Of a DNA stretch of 64,000 nt, positions 26,302 through 60,212 are shown in pieces (within the stretch, counting starts at the first letter, position 1; each line of letters opens with the position of its first letter). The stretch spans positions 1 through 64,000 of the forward strand of contig JBLIRP010000007.1 of assembly GCA_049472355.1 (NCBI GenBank), given 5' to 3'. The notes under the pieces were generated by a model. That model was not told the DNA's origin. It was given only the letters and a program-made list of their open reading frames with translations, and made no database searches. The stretch is from a bacterium (GTDB taxonomy: Bacteria > SZUA-182 > DTGQ01 > JAFGSM01). Made by a program: the position numbers and the translations under genes.

Positions 26302-27153
26302 CTAAAAAAGCAGCCCGCCTCCGAGCCCTAATCCGAGCCCTCCGAGTCCCAGGCCAAGGCCTCCCATCCCTAGACCAAGCCCTCCGAGCCCCATACCAAA
26401 GGGGTCGATCATGCTTAAACCTAAACCCAGACCATAGCCGCCCATTAAACCGAGGCCGCCGTACATGCCAAGGCCGCCATAGAGACCGAGGCCGCCGTAG
26501 AGTCCACCCATTAAACCAAGGCCGCCGTACAGTCCGCCGTACATGCCGAGGCCGCCGTACAGTCCGCCGTACATGCCAAGGCCGCCGTACAGTCCGCCGT
26601 ACATACCGTACCCGGTTCCGTACATACCGTACCCGGTTCCGTACATACCGTAGCCGCCATAGCCGCCGTAACCACCATATCCACCGTAACCACCATATCC
26701 ACCGTAACCGCCGTACTGGGGATATCCGTAGCCGCCGCCGTAGCCGCCATAGCCACCGTAGCCGCCGTAGCCACCATATCCACCGTAACCGCCATAGCCA
26801 CTATACCCATAGCCGCCGTACTGGGGATATCCGTAGCCGCCGCCGTAGCCGCCATAGCCGCCGTAGCCGCTATAACCACCATATCCACCGTAACCGCCAT
26901 AGCCACTATACCCATAGCCGCCGTACTGGGGATATCCGTAGCCGCCGTAGCCACTATAGCCATAACTGCTGGGGTAGTAACCGGAGGAGCCGTAATAGCT
27001 GCTTGAAGGGTAGTATCCGGAGTAGCCGTAGCTTGATGAGGGGTAATATGAGGAAGAAGAATAATAGGCGAAGCCGGGCGAGGCCAGGAACGCTACTATG
27101 ATTATTATGATCAAAGAGAAGAAAATTTTTTCACATCTATATGATAACTTCAT
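26302..27153 (-). CDS. Secreted Gly/Tyr-rich low-complexity repeat protein
   Basis: AAGGAG SD, 29-aa signal peptide (PGFA|YY), blocks of SSY, GGY, GMYGTG, GGLY and GLG; has its own promoter and terminator. Confidence 0.85.
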   Translation of the reverse strand: MKLSYRCEKIFFSLIIIIIVAFLASPGFAYYSSSSYYPSSSYGYSGYYPSSSYYGSSGYYPSSYGYSGYGGYGYPQYGGYGYSGYGGYGGYGGYSGYGGYGGYGGGYGYPQYGGYGYSGYGGYGGYGGYGGYGGYGGYGGGYGYPQYGGYGGYGGYGGYGGYGGYGGYGMYGTGYGMYGTGYGMYGGLYGGLGMYGGLYGGLGMYGGLYGGLGLMGGLYGGLGLYGGLGMYGGLGLMGGYGLGLGLSMIDPFGMGLGGLGLGMGGLGLGLGGLGLGLGGGLLF

Positions 27154-27316
27154 AGATCCAACTCCTTTAACCGAATCTTACCATTCTTTTGCGAACATCC
27201 ACAAAAAACGCTATCTCTTATGAATCAGTTACAAGCCACCCCCTTTTCACTACATTTTGTTAAGACATCGAATATACTAAAACGTTCCCAAACACACTGT
27301 GTTCTTCCACATATAA

Positions 27317-46676: not shown

Positions 46677-47960
46677 TTAATCGGGTGTATACTTGGTCGC
46701 CTTGAATGTGCCCACCATGGAATAATCGTTGGTCCCCTTCACGGTAAACTGGCCAAAGAACCAGTTATCGTAGATTCGAAGATTGTTGAACGTCCAGACA
46801 TAATCACTGATCAGATTTGAAATATCGCTGAGGAGCTCATCCCCGTCGATATTGAGGTAATGAAGCATTACCCACTTGTTGTACTTTTCGATCCACCCGG
46901 TAACCTTCACCGGCATGATGTCCCCATCCCAGGCCGGATAATCCTCCACGTTCCAGTTATTGACCTGGGCGGTTCCCTCAACCTTGCCCCCCGTCATGAT
47001 CTGTTTGGTGATATGGAATTTGATATCCCCTGTCGTTTCGATTATGACGTATCCGTTGGGATCGTTCATCACAACCCCATTGGGATCGGTTGCAAAGGCC
47101 TCCCATGTCCCCGACCAGTGACCGCGCAGGTCGGGAATGTCCTGGGGTTTCCCGTAGTATTCAGAGGTGTCGGGTTCTTCGGGTTCATTCGACTTCGAGG
47201 ATTTCTGTGTTGTGGAATATGGATTGAAACCGTAAGGATTGAGTTGAAACCCACCGTACCCGGGAATCCCTCCGGCGAATCCGCCTGTCATGCCGAATGC
47301 CGGAACGCCGAAATTCCCTATGCCTGCACCGAATCCGGCGCCGTAAGGCATCCCCGCTCCCAAACCAACCGGTGAAAATCCCCCGGGCATTCCGCCAAAA
47401 CCGTAGCTGGGGATCCCAAGACTGAAGGCGCCGCCGAAGCCGGATGCCCCATAGTTGAAGCCGCCGCCGAGGCCCGGGTTAAAGCCGCCGAGGCCGGCCC
47501 CCCCGTAGTTAAAGCCGGTGCCGTAACTGGGATTGAAACCGCCGAAGTTGGTATTGAGGCCGGAGGTCCCGTAGTTAAAGCCGCCGAGGCCCGGGTTATA
47601 GCCGCCAAAGGCGGAGGCCCCGTAGTTAAAGGCGCCGCCGAGGCCGGGATTGAATCCGGAGGCGCCGTAGTTAAAGCCGGTGCTGTATCCGGGGAAGGCG
47701 CCGCCGAAGCCGGATGCCCCATAGCCGTATCCGCCCCCGAAAACGGGATTGAAACCGCCCCCGAAAACGGGATTGAAACCGCCCCCAAAGCCCGGGTATG
47801 CACCAAATCCGCTGCCGGGAACACTGAAGGGGCTCGGGCCGAATGTCCCGAAGGCTGGAAATTGCGCAAAGGCACCGGGCAGTTGGAAACCACCGGCGAG
47901 AAAGACCAGACAGATGAAAACGATGATATGGGAAAACAACCTGACCTTTTTGATATTCAT
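46677..47960 (-). CDS. Secreted protein with a Gly/Phe/Asn/Tyr low-complexity N-terminal region and a globular C-terminal domain
   Basis: Start MNIKK, signal peptide AFA|Q, repeats of GFNPVFGG, FNYG and NPGLGG, then an acidic beta-rich domain (DLRGHWSGTW). Confidence 0.8.
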   Translation of the reverse strand: MNIKKVRLFSHIIVFICLVFLAGGFQLPGAFAQFPAFGTFGPSPFSVPGSGFGAYPGFGGGFNPVFGGGFNPVFGGGYGYGASGFGGAFPGYSTGFNYGASGFNPGLGGAFNYGASAFGGYNPGLGGFNYGTSGLNTNFGGFNPSYGTGFNYGGAGLGGFNPGLGGGFNYGASGFGGAFSLGIPSYGFGGMPGGFSPVGLGAGMPYGAGFGAGIGNFGVPAFGMTGGFAGGIPGYGGFQLNPYGFNPYSTTQKSSKSNEPEEPDTSEYYGKPQDIPDLRGHWSGTWEAFATDPNGVVMNDPNGYVIIETTGDIKFHITKQIMTGGKVEGTAQVNNWNVEDYPAWDGDIMPVKVTGWIEKYNKWVMLHYLNIDGDELLSDISNLISDYVWTFNNLRIYDNWFFGQFTVKGTNDYSMVGTFKATKYTPD

Positions 47961-48559
47961 ATGTATTCCCCCCGAATCTGTAGAATCAAGAGATGCAAAA
48001 TATAACGAGCTCAACGAAAAACAGCGACGAACCGATGCCCGTGGTAAGAATGTATCCCTCCCGGTTGTTGGAGGATGGTGTCCGTCGTCTGCGTTTCGGT
48101 AATCCTCGCAGGGAAGAAATTGTTTCACTATGTGTAAAAAAGTCATACCCCCCTTCTGCCGGTGATTCGATTATACTCGTTCCGGCACGATATCTATTTC
48201 CGTATGCCGGAAGGATTGTCTGCCCTGGTTGTAAGCGCAGAGGGATCGTATCCCTCAGGTTCGACGCCGGGTGTACCCTGCGCATTACAGCCTGAGAAAA
48301 CGATATAACGCTATAAGGATATACCAGAAGATAGACGACAAAGATTCCATTCCATTACTCACACTATAATGGGTTGCTCGCAATATCGAGCAATTACATG
48401 GGGGAATCCGCCCCTGCTTTTTGTGACTCGATCCCTGCAGGGGCGGCATGGTGTCCCTGATGGTATTTCACCCTCCTACAGGCAGGGGAACGTTTCGCCG
48501 ATAAGTAAGGAGGGAACACGGCCGTCGGACTGCACTGCACTATATGATTCCTATATGCC

Positions 48560-50339: not shown

Positions 50340-51542
50340 TCACGGCATCATGGAGTAATACTCCATCCGGCTGCCATGGCCGGCGCCCTCCTTGTGCAGT
50401 ATGTTTCCGTTTGCATCGTAGTGCTCCCACACATCCGGTTTCCCGTTTCCCGTCGTATCCTGCGCTATGCCGGAGATTGCCCCGTCTCGATAGTCGATCC
50501 ACATGTCCACTCTCCCATCCGCATCCCTGTCCATTCGGCATTTCCTGACCATGCCTGCCTCGTAGTCACACCAGCAGTCCTTTGTCCCGTCCGCATTCTC
50601 GTCAGTGATGCCCTGCCGTATCGCCCCCGCATCATCGTAGAAGAACTCCACATCAGGGACCCCGTCCCCGTTTTCATCCCTGGTTTCCCGGATCACTATC
50701 CCTCCCTGAAAAAAGGAGGTGCGGTCAAACCTTCCATCCGCGTCGGTATCCTTGTCCGCTTTTAGCATTGTGCCGTTGCGGTATTCCTGGATTTCATCGA
50801 TCCTTCCGTCATAATCCGCGTCCAGTTTTTGTTCCTTCACCAGGCCGTTTTGATCAAAGAAGAGCCAGGTGTCCACTTCCCTGTCTCCGTTTGCATCCCT
50901 TTCCTGCCGGGCATGATTCCCGTCGATATAATAGTCCCAGACATCAATCACCCCATTCCGATCCTTGTCCTTGCGGACCTCGGCGAGGATTCCTTCGGCA
51001 AACACCATGACGAGATCCATATTCCCGTCAAGGTCCGTATCCCGTTCCTCCTGTTCCACCCTTTCTGCGTCGTCGAGGAGTATCCGGACATCCGGTTGCC
51101 CGTCATGATTCTCGTCGAGCTGGGTCTTGAAAACCTTGTCTTCCGCATTCAGATAGACCCACTGGTCGACGTTTCCATCCCGGTTTCTGTCCTTTTCCTG
51201 CCGGCAATGCCTGTCTCCATCGAAGAAATCCCAGGTGTCCGGAATCCCGTCTGCATTGGTATCCCGGGTGACCAGCACCGGCTTCTCTCCCTGGAAGTGC
51301 TGCCATGTATCCACGTTGCCGTCGAAGTCGGCATCCATCTCCACCCTTTCCAGATGTCCCCCCGGGGAATAGTGTCCCCATAGGTCCGGTGCTCCGTCCC
51401 GGTTCGTGTCCTCCGTGTAGCGGGGTTCGTTACCGACCCTGCCGGAGGGGGCGGGGAAAAGAGGGGATTCGGCGAGCAGAAGAATCAACACGACGACAGT
51501 GATCCCGCTCATGGTTTTTCCTGGCCTTATGTCCATATGCAC
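50340..51542 (-). CDS. Secreted protein with 14 Dx[DN]xDG-like Ca-binding repeats
   Basis: Signal peptide, then ~22-23-aa units with a D.[DN].DG..D.W consensus. Confidence 0.8.
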   Translation of the reverse strand: MHMDIRPGKTMSGITVVVLILLLAESPLFPAPSGRVGNEPRYTEDTNRDGAPDLWGHYSPGGHLERVEMDADFDGNVDTWQHFQGEKPVLVTRDTNADGIPDTWDFFDGDRHCRQEKDRNRDGNVDQWVYLNAEDKVFKTQLDENHDGQPDVRILLDDAERVEQEERDTDLDGNMDLVMVFAEGILAEVRKDKDRNGVIDVWDYYIDGNHARQERDANGDREVDTWLFFDQNGLVKEQKLDADYDGRIDEIQEYRNGTMLKADKDTDADGRFDRTSFFQGGIVIRETRDENGDGVPDVEFFYDDAGAIRQGITDENADGTKDCWCDYEAGMVRKCRMDRDADGRVDMWIDYRDGAISGIAQDTTGNGKPDVWEHYDANGNILHKEGAGHGSRMEYYSMMP

Positions 51543-52598: not shown

Positions 52599-53837
52599 CT
52601 ACCAGCCGAGTCCGGGAATCCCTCCATAGCTGATGCCTCCGGCGCTGATAAAGCCACCCTCCACGGCGCCGCCTCCTCCAAGACCAAAGGCCGCACCGGG
52701 ACCGATGCCTGCGCCGAACAGGGGCCCTCCGCCCATGAGGAAGCCGCCACCCATCAAGCCCAAGCCGCCGCCGAACAGGCCCAAGCCGCCGCCGAACAAG
52801 CCCACGCCGCCGCCGAACAAGCCCACGCCGCCGCCGAACAAGCCCACGCCGCCGCCGAACGGCATGAAGAGCCCTCCAGCCGCTGACAAATCGCCCGTGC
52901 CTTCAAACACTCCACCTACGGGAACCATGGCACCCAGACCGAACAGACCCAGGAGGCCGGCGCCCGCTGCAGCGGACTCGGGAAGCTCGTTCACCATGGC
53001 ATAGCCGGTGGCAATGCCGGGGCCCGTTACCGTGCCTGTTTCCACGTTGCTGACATCTGCGCCGAAGTACCAACTGGTGGGATTTGCCTCGTTATAGTAA
53101 GCGAAATTCGGAACGAATGCCATCCCTTCCTTGGTGTATGCATAGTCCCACCCCCATGCATTGTTCATGGCGGAGGCTTCTTCCCCATAGGTCTCCAGTG
53201 CCATCACACCCCTGAGGTGGTTGCTCACTCCCATCAAGTCGATGGGCATGGGGAGGCCGAAGGATGCGTGAGATACACTCGTGCCGCTCCCGGTAACCGG
53301 CAGGATACCCATTGCACCGGCGCCCTGTGCCGTATTGACGGATGTGCCGTAGTAAAACCAGGGCATGCTGATCTCCCTGCTCAGGTGGGTGGCAGAGCCC
53401 AGGGGGGTGGAGACCACAGAGGTGTCGGAGCTGAACCCCCCGTACGGTGAGGCCACCTTGTTGTACTGCCCGGTTGCCACAGTGACGGGATCAGCGTAAT
53501 AGGCGCTTCCCTTCTGGTAATTCATCCCCAGGATATCGCTGTACATCATTGACTGGGAACCGGCCTGGCTGATGATATCGGCGTACGAGGACACGGATGT
53601 GGCCTGGGTGGAAAAGGGGGTGGTTAACGTTCGCTCATCAAAGGTATAGCGACTCAAAAGGTCGAAATATGAGCCCGAATTCTGCGTGGTGACGCCGAAT
53701 GGATTCGCGGATACCACGGAAACACTGGAGCCGAGTGAAGGAAGTTGTGCCTGCACCGGGGCTGCGATAAGGCTCAGCACACAGAACGATGCAAGCACGG
53801 CAAAGACCGCACGCTCCAAATACCCTTCCTTGAGCAT
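52599..53837 (-). CDS. Secreted Ser/Thr/Tyr-rich protein with a C-terminal FGGG(V/L)GL repeat tail
   Basis: AGGAG SD, start MLKEG, signal peptide VQA|Q, 21-bp tandem repeats at about 52755-52865. Confidence 0.82.
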   Translation of the reverse strand: MLKEGYLERAVFAVLASFCVLSLIAAPVQAQLPSLGSSVSVVSANPFGVTTQNSGSYFDLLSRYTFDERTLTTPFSTQATSVSSYADIISQAGSQSMMYSDILGMNYQKGSAYYADPVTVATGQYNKVASPYGGFSSDTSVVSTPLGSATHLSREISMPWFYYGTSVNTAQGAGAMGILPVTGSGTSVSHASFGLPMPIDLMGVSNHLRGVMALETYGEEASAMNNAWGWDYAYTKEGMAFVPNFAYYNEANPTSWYFGADVSNVETGTVTGPGIATGYAMVNELPESAAAGAGLLGLFGLGAMVPVGGVFEGTGDLSAAGGLFMPFGGGVGLFGGGVGLFGGGVGLFGGGLGLFGGGLGLMGGGFLMGGGPLFGAGIGPGAAFGLGGGGAVEGGFISAGGISYGGIPGLGW

Positions 53838-54136
53838 GATACATCCTCTCCTTTCTGCAATGAATATACAATGTTCAGCAGTGGTCATATCGTTTCTCAC
53901 CGGGGACATCGCATGGTCGTCGGGCGATCATGAGCCGATTGGTTGGCCATAATAGTATACATTATATAATATAGCACATTTATTATTTTTTATAAATAGC
54001 GGTGGGACTTCCCCGGCACTTCGGATTTTGACATGCACCCGGCCTGATGATTAAAAACGGGAATTGCTGCACCCTCTCACCCGCCGAGGAATGATGTCAC
54101 GCCGGAGGGGTCAGTTCGTAGTCGGACTTCGAAGGG

Positions 54137-55543
54137 CTACCGGTACACGGTGATATCCATGGATTTTTTTGCAAAGGTGTACTGGTGAAAGTGATCCAGG
54201 TAGAAGTTCCCCTTGTCCTCGAAGGGATACCAGACAAGCTCCCGCTTCGTGACCACGAGGGTGTGATCATTATAAAAATTCAACGCCTTTGGATCCTGCC
54301 TTCCCACAACGGCAAAGAGGATGACATCGAGCATCTCCTCCGCCTCGCTCAACGGAAGCGAGGCATTGAATATCTGCGTGTGAGGGAAGGGACCGGCTGG
54401 GGCGACGGGCAGGAGCCTTTGATGACGGTTGATGGTGGCGGCGAGCTTGAGGAGCGCCCGGGCATTCCGGGTAACCAGCGCGGGGACGTATAACCGGATC
54501 GGCCGGCTCGGGTCTTCATTCCTGAGCATGAATCTCCCCATCTTCATTAGGCCGCTGAGGTCCTGGATGGTCTTCAATGAGAGGTTCGCGGCCTTTGAGT
54601 TTGCCTGTACCTCGAAGCGCCAGAAGGGGAGGTATACGGTGCCTGTTTGGGTCCGGGCATTCAGAAGGGTTACGGGGATCGAATGATAATCCCCGTCCTT
54701 GAGGAGCCAGAGGCGGCCGCACATGGCGCAGTAAAAAATGATGTCGAAATCCCCGGCGGGCAGATCATGCCCGCAGTTCTTGCACCGGTGGGAGAGGAGG
54801 TTGATTGTATAGGGATGCCCTCCTGTCTCTTCCTTGACGGAATCCGCGTTTCCCCGCACATCCTCGATCAGGCTTCTGCCTATCCCGTCGATCAGGAAGG
54901 TGCGGGGACCTGTCGGCCCGGTGCACGCGACCCGCATCACCGGATAATAGATCAGGAAGAGATGCTCCCCGATGAGGTGCAATCGCTTGTACACGGCCTG
55001 ACCTGCCTCACACAACAGATTCGTCTCGGCAACCTTTGCCGCCTGGGTGTATGCGGCGTCCCGATCGACCGATGCCGGGAGCACGGTCCCCTTGCCCTTG
55101 AGTGCCGCGCTGTCATAGGGCTCGATGGCCAGCACCTCCGTTCTGACGCTCAGGGAATTGAACGTGCCGGCGAAATCCGGGCAGGCCTGGAAGGAATAAT
55201 ACCATGTCTTGCCGATGGTATCGTTTTCCCCCTTTGTGGTGTATGTGAGATAGAGCATTCCCTTGAAATACCAGAAGGGCTTGTACACGGTGGTGATCCG
55301 GTCTATGGAGAAGACCCCGGGCATGCCTTTCCCTCTGCCCATCAGGGCCTTTCGTATGATGCACTGTATGTCGTGGTTGCTCGGGGTGCGGGGCTGGATG
55401 ATGTATTTGAGGATGTTCCCTCCCTGCTTGATGCGCAGCACGGAGCCGCAATAGGTGCAGGTAAAGGCATAGGCGCCTTCAGGGAAACGGATGGGACCGC
55501 CGCATTCGGGGCATTTTACGGTGACGACGAACGGTGAGCGCAT
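54137..55543 (-). CDS. Zinc-ribbon protein (YdjG-like)
   Basis: CPECGG...CTYCG at the N-terminus, internal CKNCG...CAMCG, Y.PFW motifs twice. Confidence 0.75.
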   Translation of the reverse strand: MRSPFVVTVKCPECGGPIRFPEGAYAFTCTYCGSVLRIKQGGNILKYIIQPRTPSNHDIQCIIRKALMGRGKGMPGVFSIDRITTVYKPFWYFKGMLYLTYTTKGENDTIGKTWYYSFQACPDFAGTFNSLSVRTEVLAIEPYDSAALKGKGTVLPASVDRDAAYTQAAKVAETNLLCEAGQAVYKRLHLIGEHLFLIYYPVMRVACTGPTGPRTFLIDGIGRSLIEDVRGNADSVKEETGGHPYTINLLSHRCKNCGHDLPAGDFDIIFYCAMCGRLWLLKDGDYHSIPVTLLNARTQTGTVYLPFWRFEVQANSKAANLSLKTIQDLSGLMKMGRFMLRNEDPSRPIRLYVPALVTRNARALLKLAATINRHQRLLPVAPAGPFPHTQIFNASLPLSEAEEMLDVILFAVVGRQDPKALNFYNDHTLVVTKRELVWYPFEDKGNFYLDHFHQYTFAKKSMDITVYR

Positions 55544-55560
55544 GCATCATCACTCGTGGT

Positions 55561-56673
55561 TTATTCGATCTTCTGCCCGCAGTTTGGGCAGAATTTCGTC
55601 CCCGGAGGCAGGTCAAGCTTGCAGGTGGCGCATTTTGGCTTCGTTTTTAGATTCTGTCCGCAGTTCATACAGAATGTGGCGTGCACCGGCACCACCTTCG
55701 AACAGTTGGGGCACACGCTGGAGCGCACCATCTGATGGCCGCACCGGTAGCAGAAACGGCTGTTTTCAGGGGTGTAGGCCAGACATTCGGGGCACTGGAC
55801 GGTGGGGATCGAACCGCCGGCAAGGTCTTTTTGCTCGGATGAGAACGCCTTGCTCATGTACCCCGGCATCAGCATCCCCACCCCGAGCCCGATGCCCGCT
55901 CCGGCGCCTGCCGTGCCTGCACCACCCTGGGCGTCCATGGATTTCGCCAGCTTGAATTTGAGGAACTGGTCCAGGTTTTTCACCGCACCCATGCCGCTTC
56001 GCTCGTCGATCATCCGCTGCACCTCTTCAGGAGGGGTCATGGAGGTGATATAGAAATCGAGAAGCTCGATCCCATACTTACCGAATTCCTCCAGGAGCCT
56101 TTGCCTCAATTCAGTGCCGAGTTCCTCATAGTGTTTGGGGAGATCCAGGATGGTCTTCAGTTTTTCCCCCATCAGGTCGTTCAACCTGCATACGATGATA
56201 TTGCGCAGGTACTCCTCGATCTGGGAGGTGGTGTAGGTTGCCTCCCTGCCCACGAGCTGATTGATGAAGAGGAGGGGTTCGGTGATGCGGCAACTGTATA
56301 CCCCGTATCCGCGCAAGCGGATCAGCCCGAGTTCACTGTCACGGAAAGCGACCGGTTCCCGCGTTCCCCACTTCAGGTCGATAAAGGTCTTGTGGTTGAT
56401 GAAATAGGCCTCTGCCTTGAATATGCTCTCGAATCCCCAGGGGGCGCTGAAGAGCTTTGTAATGATCGGCAGGTTGAAGGTGGAAAGGGTATGACGTCCG
56501 GGACCGAAGGAATCGCATGCCTTGCCGTCCCGGTAGAACACGGCGGACTGTGTCTCCCTCACCACAAGTTGGGCGCCCAGCTTGATATCCGCCGATCCCG
56601 CCTCGGGATATCGATAGATCATCTCGGTGGGGGATGGATCGGGCCATTCAATAACCTCCATCATTATAGCCAT
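55561..56673 (-). CDS. SPFH-domain protein (YdjI-like) with C-terminal zinc ribbons
   Basis: QLVVRE.Q.AVF...G, PGRHTL.T.NLP, KWGT..P, and three CxxC...FCxxCG double zinc ribbons. Confidence 0.88.
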   Translation of the reverse strand: MAIMMEVIEWPDPSPTEMIYRYPEAGSADIKLGAQLVVRETQSAVFYRDGKACDSFGPGRHTLSTFNLPIITKLFSAPWGFESIFKAEAYFINHKTFIDLKWGTREPVAFRDSELGLIRLRGYGVYSCRITEPLLFINQLVGREATYTTSQIEEYLRNIIVCRLNDLMGEKLKTILDLPKHYEELGTELRQRLLEEFGKYGIELLDFYITSMTPPEEVQRMIDERSGMGAVKNLDQFLKFKLAKSMDAQGGAGTAGAGAGIGLGVGMLMPGYMSKAFSSEQKDLAGGSIPTVQCPECLAYTPENSRFCYRCGHQMVRSSVCPNCSKVVPVHATFCMNCGQNLKTKPKCATCKLDLPPGTKFCPNCGQKIE

Positions 56674-57288
56674 GGTATGCGTCTCCCTGTTTATGTTTCA
56701 ATATGTTTTATATGTTATGGTACAGCCGATACTTATTGTTCGGATGATTGGGCCTTTACATTCAAGAATTTCGTACCATGGATTTCCATTGCCTGTCGCA
56801 TGGCATCGATCAATCGCGACCAACAACGGGCACTTCATTTCCGCCAAGGACCGTAATGAATAGACTCCGCAGCCGGTCTTAACAATTTGAGGGACTCTTC
56901 ACCATTAACCACGGGGGGATGACACGTTCGATCATGGCCCCCTTCATATCGTTCTCTTTGATTTTTATTGCCATCATGGTAAAATATAAACAACAAATCA
57001 TACGAGAATATTCTTTTGGCCATCATTTCCATGCGTTACAGCTATTCCGCTTATTGCAGTTATGCCTTAACGTCACCATCGCATGGTGCAGCATCGATAT
57101 TAAAAACAGGGTAAAGACCAAAAGAGGGGGGTGAGAGAGAGGTTCTTGAGGTCAGTGTTCTCCTTCCAATAATTCAACTCAATTTTTTTGCCTATAAGGA
57201 GGGAAAAACGACGAGCACAAGGAATGTCTTAAGGCCGATCTTGTCTATGCTTGGTAATGAATGACACCATGTATCAGGAGGTGCTGAG

Positions 57289-57855
57289 ATGCGTGTAAGG
57301 AAAGGATTATTCTACTGGATATTCAGCGGCCTGTTGGTAGGTATGGCCCTTTGTCTGATCGCCGCCCCTGCTGCTCAGGCCCAGAACTGGCAGGCGATTC
57401 CGCCGTATAATCTGCTGTGGCCCCTCTGGTCTCCCATGCTGTCCCCTCCCAATCCCGTGACCGGCGTGCCGACCCCGCTGCTCAGTTCCGTAACCAAAAA
57501 TACGTTTCTTCCCATAGAGCCCATCATGCTCTGGGATCCCGTGCTGCGGGGATATCCTTACGTACTCTATAATATCCCGCAACCCCTTGGCGGGGGCATG
57601 GTCTTCTTCGATCAATACTTCGGGCTCAATCCCTGGCCGCCGCGCTACCTCATCGACCCCATCACCGGCCTTCCGGATCCCATCACCCTTCCCACGGGGT
57701 ATGCGACGCTGTCACCGACGCCGCTCGATCCCTTTGCCGATTTTCTCACGATTGCCAACCTGTATTACCTGGCTCAATATCCGCCCGGCTTGTTTTCCAC
57801 CGGGGTTTCGGGCCTGCTGACAACGGCCGAGATATGGGGCCTGCCGCCCCTTTAA
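57289..57855 (+). CDS. Secreted Pro-rich protein, PPYNLLWPLWSP family, paralog 1
   Basis: AGGAGG-N7-ATG, 31-aa signal peptide (AQA|Q), aligns along its length with the next three ORFs. Confidence 0.9.
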   Translation: MRVRKGLFYWIFSGLLVGMALCLIAAPAAQAQNWQAIPPYNLLWPLWSPMLSPPNPVTGVPTPLLSSVTKNTFLPIEPIMLWDPVLRGYPYVLYNIPQPLGGGMVFFDQYFGLNPWPPRYLIDPITGLPDPITLPTGYATLSPTPLDPFADFLTIANLYYLAQYPPGLFSTGVSGLLTTAEIWGLPPL

Positions 57856-57922
57856 CCACATGGACACCAGGAATATGTATTCGAATTTCGTTTGAGTATT
57901 TGATTGATAAGGAGGATGTGAG

Positions 57923-58489
57923 ATGCATGGAAGGAAAGAAAACCTGCGTTGCGCAGTGCTCATCATTGCGCTCTTCATAGCCGTCATGGTGATCCCCTCC
58001 GGAACCGCCCAGGCACAGTACTGGCAGGCGATTCCGCCGTATAATCTGCTGTGGCCCCTGTGGTCTCCGGCCCTTTCGCCGACGAATCCCGTAACCGGCG
58101 TACCGACCCCGCTGGTAAGCACCCTCACCAGCGGAACGGTTCTTCCTGCTCAACCCGCCCTTTTGTGGGATCCCTCGTATGAATTGCCCTACCTTCTGTA
58201 CAATGTGCCTGTTGCCTATGGCGGCGGCATGGTATACTTTGATCCCTATTTCGGGCTTAATCCATTCCCGCCCCCGTATCTGCTCGATCCCATTACCGGT
58301 TCACCCAATCCCCTGACCCTTCCCACGGGATTTGCATCGCTCTCGCCCACCCCCCTGCAGACCACCAATCTCTTTTATGCAAACCTGCTCTATATATCCG
58401 AGTATCCGTATATTGCCCTGGGGGTGCTCAACAGGATCACCAATCTCTTGACACCCGGCGAGATATGGGGATTGACGCCGTTGATTTAG
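57923..58489 (+). CDS. Secreted Pro-rich protein, PPYNLLWPLWSP family, paralog 2
   Basis: AGGAGG-N7-ATG, 31-aa signal peptide (AQA|Q), shared motifs. Confidence 0.9.
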   Translation: MHGRKENLRCAVLIIALFIAVMVIPSGTAQAQYWQAIPPYNLLWPLWSPALSPTNPVTGVPTPLVSTLTSGTVLPAQPALLWDPSYELPYLLYNVPVAYGGGMVYFDPYFGLNPFPPPYLLDPITGSPNPLTLPTGFASLSPTPLQTTNLFYANLLYISEYPYIALGVLNRITNLLTPGEIWGLTPLI

Positions 58490-58535
58490 TGCCCGACACC
58501 GCCTTGATTGTCGTTTTGTTGTAGGAGGTAGGTAC

Positions 58536-59102
58536 ATGTTATTAAAAAGACAGATCGTGATAAAAGGGGGGACGGGGCTGTTGCTCCTCATCGCCATGTT
58601 TTTGATCGCCTCGCCTGCAGTACAGGCGCAGAACTGGGTCCCGATACCTCCCTATAACCTGCTGTGGCCCCTGTGGTCTCCTGCCCTCTCTCCGCCGGAT
58701 GCCGTAACCGGGATACCGATACCGCTCCTCAACTCGCTCAACAGCCAGACACTGCTCCCCGTGCAGCCGGTGCTTATGTGGGACCCTGTTATACGGGATT
58801 TTCCGTACATGCTGTACAACATTCCCCAACCCTTGGGCGGTGGAATGGTCTTTTTTGATCAGTACTACGGCCTCAATCCCTGGCCGCCCCCGTATCTGAC
58901 CGATCCTGTCACCGGATCGCCTGTTCCCATTACGCTGCCGACGGGGTTTGCCGCACTTTCCCCTACGCCCCTTGATCCCTTTGCCGACTATGTGACCCTG
59001 GCCAACCTGTACTTTCTTTCAGAATATCCGGCGGTTTTATTTCCCACGTCCCTCTCCCGCCTGTTGACAACGGCCGAGCTTTGGGGGCTCCCTCCCCTGT
59101 GA
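58536..59102 (+). CDS. Secreted Pro-rich protein, PPYNLLWPLWSP family, paralog 3
   Basis: AGGAGG-N7-ATG, 31-aa signal peptide (VQA|Q), shared motifs. Confidence 0.9.
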   Translation: MLLKRQIVIKGGTGLLLLIAMFLIASPAVQAQNWVPIPPYNLLWPLWSPALSPPDAVTGIPIPLLNSLNSQTLLPVQPVLMWDPVIRDFPYMLYNIPQPLGGGMVFFDQYYGLNPWPPPYLTDPVTGSPVPITLPTGFAALSPTPLDPFADYVTLANLYFLSEYPAVLFPTSLSRLLTTAELWGLPPL

Positions 59103-59212
59103 GGCAGCGTGCAGGATAAAGGGAAATGTGAGGATACGGTCAAAGGTGTATGACAACGATGTGAGAACAATACAACGATGTAGTATCGCTATGGTAATAA
59201 GGAGGATTTGAC

Positions 59213-59818
59213 ATGAATGGGACGAAAAGCTCATTGGCAAGGGTGGCAATGGCCATTGCCCTTTGTATGTTCGTGGCATTCATCTGCGCCGGCCGGGTTG
59301 GCGCGGTGCCCTTGACCACACTCATCGGAGGGGGAGGTGTGGGGACCACGAACTGGACACAACTGCCCCCCTACAATCTCCTGTGGCCGCTGTGGTCTCC
59401 GGTTCTTTCCCCTGTGGACGCGATTACCGGATTGCCCACGCCTATTGTTTCAAGCGTCAGCAACAACACCATCCTGCCCGTCCAGCCGGCCCTGTTTTGG
59501 GACCCTGCCAGGCAGTTCCCCTTTTTGCTTTACAACATCCCTGAGGTCTTCGGGGGAGGGCTCAGCTTTTTCGACGCGTACTATGGCCTCAACCCCTGGC
59601 CGCCGTCGTATCTCGTTGATCCGCTTACCGGCCTGCCTGCTCCCATCAGCCCTGCGGCCGGTTTTGCCACGCTGTCGCCGACGGCCATCCTCCCCGGATT
59701 CATATTCACCGGGAATCTGCTGTACAGCGAGCAATACGGCATCCCCGTAACGTCCCTGCTCACTGCGGGGGATATCTGGGGCCTGTCTCCCCTGGCCGGT
59801 CTTTTACCGGTGATATAA
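59213..59818 (+). CDS. Secreted Pro-rich protein, PPYNLLWPLWSP family, paralog 4 (N- and C-terminal extensions)
   Basis: AGGAGG-N7-ATG, 31-aa signal peptide (VGA|V), extra VPLTTLIGGGGVGT, shared motifs. Confidence 0.9.
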   Translation: MNGTKSSLARVAMAIALCMFVAFICAGRVGAVPLTTLIGGGGVGTTNWTQLPPYNLLWPLWSPVLSPVDAITGLPTPIVSSVSNNTILPVQPALFWDPARQFPFLLYNIPEVFGGGLSFFDAYYGLNPWPPSYLVDPLTGLPAPISPAAGFATLSPTAILPGFIFTGNLLYSEQYGIPVTSLLTAGDIWGLSPLAGLLPVI

Positions 59819-59852
59819 GGATTTTTTGGGGGGGCTCACATAGAGTCTGTCT

Positions 59853-59889
59853 GGCCATTCGTCGACCTGATCGGCGAATGGCCTTTTTT
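59853..59889 (+). terminator. Rho-independent terminator of the paralog array
   Basis: ggccattcgtcga-cctga-tcggcgaatggcc followed by tttttt. Confidence 0.8.
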
Positions 59890-60212
59890 CTTGCCCATTC
59901 GGCCGCACTCCGGCGCATTGCCGCGTGCTTTCCGAACAAACGCTCATGCCCTTTCAGTGCCCCACGAAGCATGAAAATATGTTTTGATTTTTGGAACAAA
60001 AACTGTCAATTCAAGACCTGATCCCAAGCCTGCATATTTTTCGTAATAAGGAACCATTCCCTTTGCATCGGAACCATCCTACAGCCGCCGTATACCTTGT
60101 GGATCACGGGTACAAGCTCGATGAACGGATCTGGGATCGGGGATTGCATGGATGGTCGAGACGAGAAGAAGGATGACTAACGGTGAAGGGTGATGCGACG
60201 AAGGGATGAGGA

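Follow-up and report, generated by a model that had tools for sequence, protein, structure and literature searches.

The PPYN family of small, predicted-secreted proteins is real, conserved and undescribed, and it is confined to, and expanded in, a single uncultured order of bacteria. Four of its genes form a cassette in the window (the whole stretch of 64,000 nucleotides analysed here), which an earlier note, made from the sequence alone, had read as an array of four paralogues encoding structural, surface-building subunits. The paralogy was confirmed within a wider picture, in which the array accounts for four of the 34 family genes of the genome and the domain recurs as a module in large surface-type proteins. 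The structural role is partly supported overall, since the composition, copy number, fusions and co-distribution of the family all fit it.

The four co-oriented open reading frames (188, 188, 188 and 201 aa) were found as the earlier note had described them. All four have AGGAGG exactly 7 nt 5' of the ATG, and the array is closed by a single terminator, one strong hairpin with a T run 3' of gene 4. The features of the cassette, in window positions, are:

56674..57275, no strand: divergent intergenic region, with the SPFH/zinc-ribbon gene (55561-56673, minus) on one side and gene 1 on the other
57276..57281, plus: Shine-Dalgarno AGGAGG of gene 1, 7-nt spacing to the ATG
57910-57915, 58523-58528 and 59200-59205: Shine-Dalgarno AGGAGG of genes 2, 3 and 4, with identical 7-nt spacing
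57289..57855, plus: gene 1, subtype A; predicted 31-aa Sec signal (57289-57381) and 157-aa PPYN domain
57923..58489, plus: gene 2, subtype B; predicted signal (57923-58015) and 157-aa PPYN domain
58536..59102, plus: gene 3, subtype A'; predicted signal (58536-58628) and 157-aa PPYN domain; the structure-modelled chain
59213..59818, plus: gene 4, subtype C; predicted signal (59213-59305), extension (59306-59350), PPYN domain and C-terminal tail
59853..59891, plus: intrinsic-terminator-like hairpin and T tail, 13 pairs of which 8 are G-C, with stem and T run at 59853-59883; ends the cassette

The leaders are unrelated in sequence, as had been claimed, with 21-39% identity between paralogues against 56-73% for the mature chains (genes 1 and 3 are 73% identical). 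Judged by inspection, each leader has a basic start, a hydrophobic core and a cleavage-like end, with predicted cleavage at AQA/Q in genes 1 and 2, VQA/Q in gene 3 and VGA/V in gene 4; among family members of the host genome the first mature residue, assigned in the same way, is mostly Gln. When compared with the L001 orthologues by the Nei-Gojobori method, genes 1-4 have dN/dS values of 0.13, 0.20, 0.08 and 0.085. Based on this range of 0.08-0.20, we conclude that the four genes are real and maintained. Promoter-like matches in the divergent intergenic region (three found, 4.0 expected) are not above chance. The divergent neighbours (54137-56673, minus) encode an SPFH/Band-7 protein with C-terminal zinc ribbons and then a zinc-ribbon protein; this pair also lies upstream of the cassette in L001 and L002 and is absent there in L003. 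Elsewhere in the window, a 400-aa protein with Asp-rich repeats (DxDxDG type) and no Pfam match is encoded at 50340-51542 (minus), adjoining a gene with a TonB C-terminal domain.

All motifs that had been listed for the four mature chains are invariant in a four-way alignment. The [DN]xxTG.P.P[LI] motif does occur twice per chain and corresponds to a 15-column internal repeat (hhalign E 6e-5) and not to a duplication of the whole domain. The reported residue counts hold as well: the mature chains have no Cys, no His, one Lys across all four and 1-2 Arg each. Charged residues make up 4.5-7% of these chains and non-polar residues 63-68%, and both thresholds are reached by only 3 of 1,641 other non-membrane ORFs of the genome, for which the medians are 24% and 46%. 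No transmembrane-grade 19-mer is present in the four mature chains, where no 19-residue window exceeds a Kyte-Doolittle value of 1.34. Of the 157 columns in an alignment of 111 PPYN members, 56 are strongly apolar and proline accounts for 21. Charge is depleted over the whole chain and not at a single site, and the net charge of the chains is -5 to -7. Invariant residues comprise Trp, Pro, Tyr, Leu, Gly, Ser and three Asn, the polar ones including Asn10, Asn64, Asn126 and Ser17; nowhere in the family alignment is His, Cys, Lys or Glu conserved, nor is any Asp invariant.

The AlphaFold2 model of the gene-3 mature chain, based on the 111 aligned members, has a pLDDT of 94 and a pTM of 0.88. It comprises six strands of 4-5 residues, long proline-rich loops, an 18-residue helix and a short terminal helix. 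The order of elements is identical in the model of the P0130 domain (~45% identical, pLDDT > 90). Judged by these models, PPYN is a folded domain and not a low-complexity chain. The earlier statement that no known family and no catalytic motif could be recognised held in every library searched. Pfam gave no family at E<=1 for genes 1-3, one unrelated weak match for gene 4 and no relevant match over 56 PPYN members; a PDB sequence search gave no match for the cassette proteins; and Foldseek with the model returned nothing in viral models or the PDB. The VIA fold search reached a best Z of 2.5 among 48,161 chains, where unmatched models typically reach 7-8. As modelled, PPYN is a candidate new fold, a blank fold search being, according to the tool, not proof of one.

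The host genome encodes 35 PPYN domain copies in 34 ORFs: 32 stand-alone domains, one partial domain and one 4,574-aa protein with two copies. The phylum is represented by 20 genomes, 13 of the host order and 7 others. PPYN was matched 10-70 times per genome in all 13 and in none of the 7, nor was it matched in 11 genomes from outside the phylum. A profile search of 1.84 billion representatives recovered 104 PPYN clusters, and a word-index search recovered 135 proteins, with every name 'hypothetical' among the best 120 of the 135. A scan of species genomes gave 64 PPYN loci whose records are labelled 'bacterium' or, for four loci, 'Pseudomonadota bacterium'. Two genomes account for the latter label; they have 14 and 21 PPYN copies, which suggests that they belong to the same lineage under a loose label. 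A named record with an orthologous cassette, L003, appears in Table S1 of PMC9040765 under phylum SZUA-182, novel class, so the host order probably belongs to SZUA-182. No published description of the PPYN motif or of the lineage was found in openly accessible papers. Two near-duplicate blocks, G000:C52:1278-6180 and G000:C82:662-5577, each contain three family genes, a small secreted protein gene and a sulfatase-like gene, and result either from recent duplication or from a mixture of strains.

The four cassette genes group with their orthologues in a quick maximum-likelihood tree of 165 domains, with a support (SH-aLRT 88) that falls short of the tool's star level. Three subtypes are well supported: genes 1 and 3 (99), gene 2 (99) and gene 4 (99). 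The gene order is A-B-A'-C in L001 and L002 and B-A-C in L003. Based on these subtypes and orders, the cassette reads at the sequence level as a three-type unit with one member duplicated. Arrays of three or six genes make up 15 of 31 multi-gene arrays, some of which are cut by locus ends, and 55 of the 86 gene groups in the host genome and fetched loci are single genes. The window cassette and the C82 triplets fall in different branches of the tree, so the three-type layout apparently arose more than once.

The fourth paralogue had been suggested to be a minor or capping subunit. What stands is that gene 4 is a separate conserved subtype with additional tails: a hydrophobic, Gly-rich N-terminal extension of 15 aa (59306-59350) and a hydrophobic C-terminal tail, both kept in the orthologues L001-L003. 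It is not a universal cap, because close orthologues (E<=1e-55) occur in 4 of 6 genomes of one family, within which the two genomes lacking one are 63% complete, and in none of the 7 genomes that represent the other two families of the order. The members at L060:4800-5255 and L061:248-646 are shortened: the central hairpin region is missing, and the ~55 N-terminal residues and the terminal helices are retained. A conserved chimera (G000:C113:974-1606, plus strand; P0209; P0224; L044:2700-3299) consists of a signal peptide, a short HU-like segment, which we take to resemble the first helix of the histone-like protein HU, and then only the N-terminal motif of the family.

PPYN also occurs within large secreted proteins, where its position is N-terminal, interior or near the C-terminus. 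The 4,574-aa protein combines its two copies with beta-helix, LVIVD, laminin-G and peptidase C25 domains, and other chains combine PPYN with beta-helix/PKD, LVIVD or FG-GAP/BACON domains. Cargo of the beta-helix, adhesin and protease type is typical of cell-surface proteins. PPYN is also joined, through a Pro/Thr linker modelled with low confidence, to an eight-stranded barrel. This beta-barrel domain, often placed after such a linker, recurs in secreted proteins of the order (P0121-P0124, P0130, P0146, P0213, P0223 and P0225, with similar tails in G000 C64:25643, C79:26420 and C94:46667); its fold is like those of avidins and OmpA-type barrels, and it has no Pfam match.

Words of the array were found in five RNA runs from two studies, as assembled contigs that report presence only, neither level nor strand, with DNA carry-over possible. 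Among the matches listed, genes 1, 3 and 4 have contigs without differences, and a less exact contig bridges genes 2 and 3, from the end of the former to the start of the latter. In three of four runs, near-identical contigs also lie on the C82 array, an independent array that had no part in finding the runs.

The host cell is diderm, as both Omp85 and LpxC were found. Two GspD proteins score over the curated cut-off in its genome, one of them in a type II secretion-like cluster on C88. GspD is present in 18 of 18 genomes tested, including the 7 without PPYN, and thus has no specific link to the family. The neighbourhoods of PPYN members are unrelated to each other, and no shared assembly, chaperone or pore gene lies beside them. 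A pattern coding for YGGLYGG occurs 5-130 times per genome in the same 13 genomes of the order and in 0 of the 7 others; as a single evolutionary event lies behind the division into 13 and 7 genomes, this co-distribution counts as a single observation. Papers retrieved for GGLYG include ones on squid ring-teeth and turtle beta-protein. A crude filter retrieved 568 signal-bearing ORFs from the host genome, 97 of which start with a charge-poor aromatic stretch. Of these 97, 27 belong to the family; the other 70 include a few false positives and consist largely of Gly/Tyr/Met/Leu or Pro/Phe/Tyr repeats. A charge-poor aromatic stretch is also carried by 25 long ORFs. The window encodes three more predicted-secreted, charge-poor, low-complexity proteins, at 26305-27177 (minus; Gly/Tyr repeats), 46680-48170 (minus; Gly/Phe/Asn/Pro) and 52599-53909 (minus; Ser/Thr-rich with a Gly/Leu/Phe tail), and RNA-library contigs also lie on the latter two. 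A second family of small secreted paralogues, ~130 aa and Tyr/Pro/Phe-rich, is found in G000 at C2:45431, C20:1366, C41:2897, C127:314 and C129:279 and 16294, and two of its members directly adjoin PPYN genes.

We consider it somewhat probable that PPYN domains build a hydrophobic surface coat or matrix. The pre-proteins, with their predicted signal peptides, would be exported by Sec and would adopt the predicted fold in the periplasm as nearly uncharged domains, for which type II secretion is the likely route across the outer membrane. We infer that Trp/Tyr/Pro/Leu surfaces would then make the domains stick to one another and to Gly/Tyr/Pro-rich proteins, that subtypes A, B and C may form a mixed unit, and that fusion to PPYN would bring adhesins and proteases into the layer and tether them there. 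The apolar surface is probably covered by partners, because so small a domain is unlikely to bury all of its apolar columns. Several considerations count against parts of this explanation: a Sec signal implies delivery to the periplasm only, GspD also occurs in genomes without PPYN, the neighbourhoods share no assembly, chaperone or pore gene, and a strict heteromer would not predict the high share of single-gene groups.

Functionally, such a coat would resemble chaplins, BslA or hydrophobins, and the domain would in addition serve as an anchoring module. The chaplins ChpA-H and the rodlins of Streptomyces (PMC8166509) are likewise a multi-paralogue secreted hydrophobic family with short free and longer forms, proposed to make a hydrophobic surface layer. 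PPYN proteins share the chaplin plan of a predicted signal and a hydrophobic domain in stand-alone and fused forms. This is a likeness of plan only, the chaplin domain being absent by Pfam from the four proteins and 56 members. A chaplin is a fibril-forming protein of ~63 aa present in 8 copies, with long forms that bear a wall anchor, whereas PPYN is a predicted globular alpha/beta domain of 157 aa present in 10-70 copies in a diderm host, with long forms that bear adhesin or protease cargo. BslA of Bacillus subtilis is a small secreted folded protein proposed, like PPYN, to assemble by its apolar surfaces into a layer that repels water. There is no sequence match between the two, and BslA is absent from the fold hits and PDB sequence matches, though an unlisted family could escape both. 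BslA is an Ig-type sandwich with a hydrophobic cap, and the short strands and one long helix of the PPYN model look unlike it. Fungal hydrophobins are small secreted folded proteins with eight conserved cysteines, in contrast to the zero Cys of the four mature chains. The sheath protein SH of Methanospirillum hungatei (PMC10593813) provides an example of an anaerobe's proteinaceous outer layer made from one self-assembling protein type; it forms beta-arch, amyloid-like hoops, in contrast to the six 4-5-residue strands and long helix of the PPYN model. No SH-type match to PPYN is among the PDB sequence and fold hits listed. Curli are defined by Gln/Asn-rich curlin repeats and a dedicated CsgG operon. 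Pfam gave no curlin match in the four proteins, no CsgG lies beside family genes, and the genome holds only two partial CsgG-like hits, in frames > 700 aa on other contigs. PPYN lacks the testable membership features of chaplins (the Pfam domain), hydrophobins, sulfur globule proteins, curli and PE-PPE proteins.

Many divergent paralogues would also fit a repertoire of binding domains. It is conceivable, if rather unlikely, that PPYN is a non-polymeric docking domain, each paralogue binding a peptide (for example an aromatic, proline-rich tail), a glycan or a hydrophobic ligand, with fused copies clipping on cargo and the variety of paralogues matching the variety of targets. SLH and dockerin domains are small surface-anchoring modules found at various positions of large secreted proteins, and PPYN is likewise a small module within unrelated large secreted proteins; it differs from them in having no such Pfam match, no Ca-binding or basic motif and a mostly stand-alone occurrence. 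The conserved exposed-type Trp/Tyr/Pro motifs, the persistence of subtypes as orthologous lines under purifying selection, the flexible tether to cargo, the many single genes and the 25 long ORFs with tails as possible ligands are all consistent with docking. However, 32 of 34 genes encode the domain alone, without a second function or an anchor, which is odd for a pure adaptor, and charge is depleted along the entire chain and not at one site.

We regard it as improbable that PPYN envelops a periplasmic inclusion in the manner of sulfur globule proteins. PMC10386293 likens the sulfur globule proteins, such as SgpA-D of Allochromatium vinosum, to keratins and describes them as multi-copy proteins that are exported by Sec, rich in proline and extremely hydrophobic. 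PPYN has in common with them a predicted Sec signal, strong hydrophobicity, proline richness and several paralogues, and a Sec signal by itself ends in the periplasm. In contrast, PPYN is a predicted folded domain and a module of giant surface-type proteins, and fusion to adhesin and protease chains of 1,000-4,500 aa fits the outside better. The SGP domain PF17228 has no match in the four proteins (a whole-genome search, run without a positive control, was also blank), and none of the 20 phylum genomes, of which 11 are >= 90% complete, has a DsrA of the reverse Dsr pathway above the cut-off. The row published for the named relative (PMC9040765) includes none of the genes sqr, fccAB, sox and rDSR.

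Quite improbable is a peripheral membrane or LPS-binding coat, in which the domain would lie on or partly in the outer membrane and need no other proteins. The long apolar helix 115-132 (family mean hydrophobicity 0.32, low moment 0.12) and the near absence of Lys and Arg are in line with it; against it, all 19-residue windows are <= 1.34 on the Kyte-Doolittle scale, the four mature chains have no lipobox Cys, and the negative net charge disfavours binding to LPS phosphates. An enzyme of unrecognised class is highly improbable: the model is compact and has invariant Asn and Ser residues, and a weak language-model neighbour is the PE-PPE domain, which carries a serine-hydrolase catalytic set, but the lack of conserved His, Cys, Lys and Glu argues against catalysis, PF08237 has no match, and the Atlas score of 0.87, a lead only, is under the Atlas's own bar of 0.9 with low recognition (821).

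The coat or matrix reading has precedents as a kind of function; the family, the predicted fold and the tile-plus-tether plan are without precedent as far as our searches reach, and the function is one that we infer. PPYN makes up ~1% of genes per genome across the order, without a family model or a solved-fold match, and probably underlies the order's defining cell structure. The reading predicts a visible coat or matrix in an uncultured sediment lineage and, if true, would mean a new kind of bacterial surface material, of interest as a biomaterial, and a new mode of cargo display. The subunits are small, cysteine-free and easy to express, which makes their structure and assembly accessible without culturing.

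A further, speculative and unlikely extension is that PPYN is the new-fold tile of an order-wide protein 'cuticle', in which cassettes would be heteromeric units, dozens of Gly/Tyr-repeat proteins the filler, and built-in adhesins, proteases and giant multiheme cytochromes (up to 60 heme motifs) would yield an electron-conducting extracellular matrix. Three or more CxxCH motifs occur in 36 ORFs of the genome. Paired heme motifs number 58-107 per genome inside the order versus 3-48 outside, a split that counts once because kin are non-independent. The largest cytochrome gene, G000:C92:11990-21787 (minus strand), encodes a predicted-secreted protein of 3,257 aa, in which 60 CxxCH motifs are accompanied by an aromatic, charge-poor stretch in the interior. 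The gene lies ~200 bases upstream of a family gene, an adjacency that is missing in the orthologous locus L054. More giant multiheme cytochrome genes, with 49, 28, 26, 25 and 24 heme motifs, are found on G000:C67, C80 and C136.
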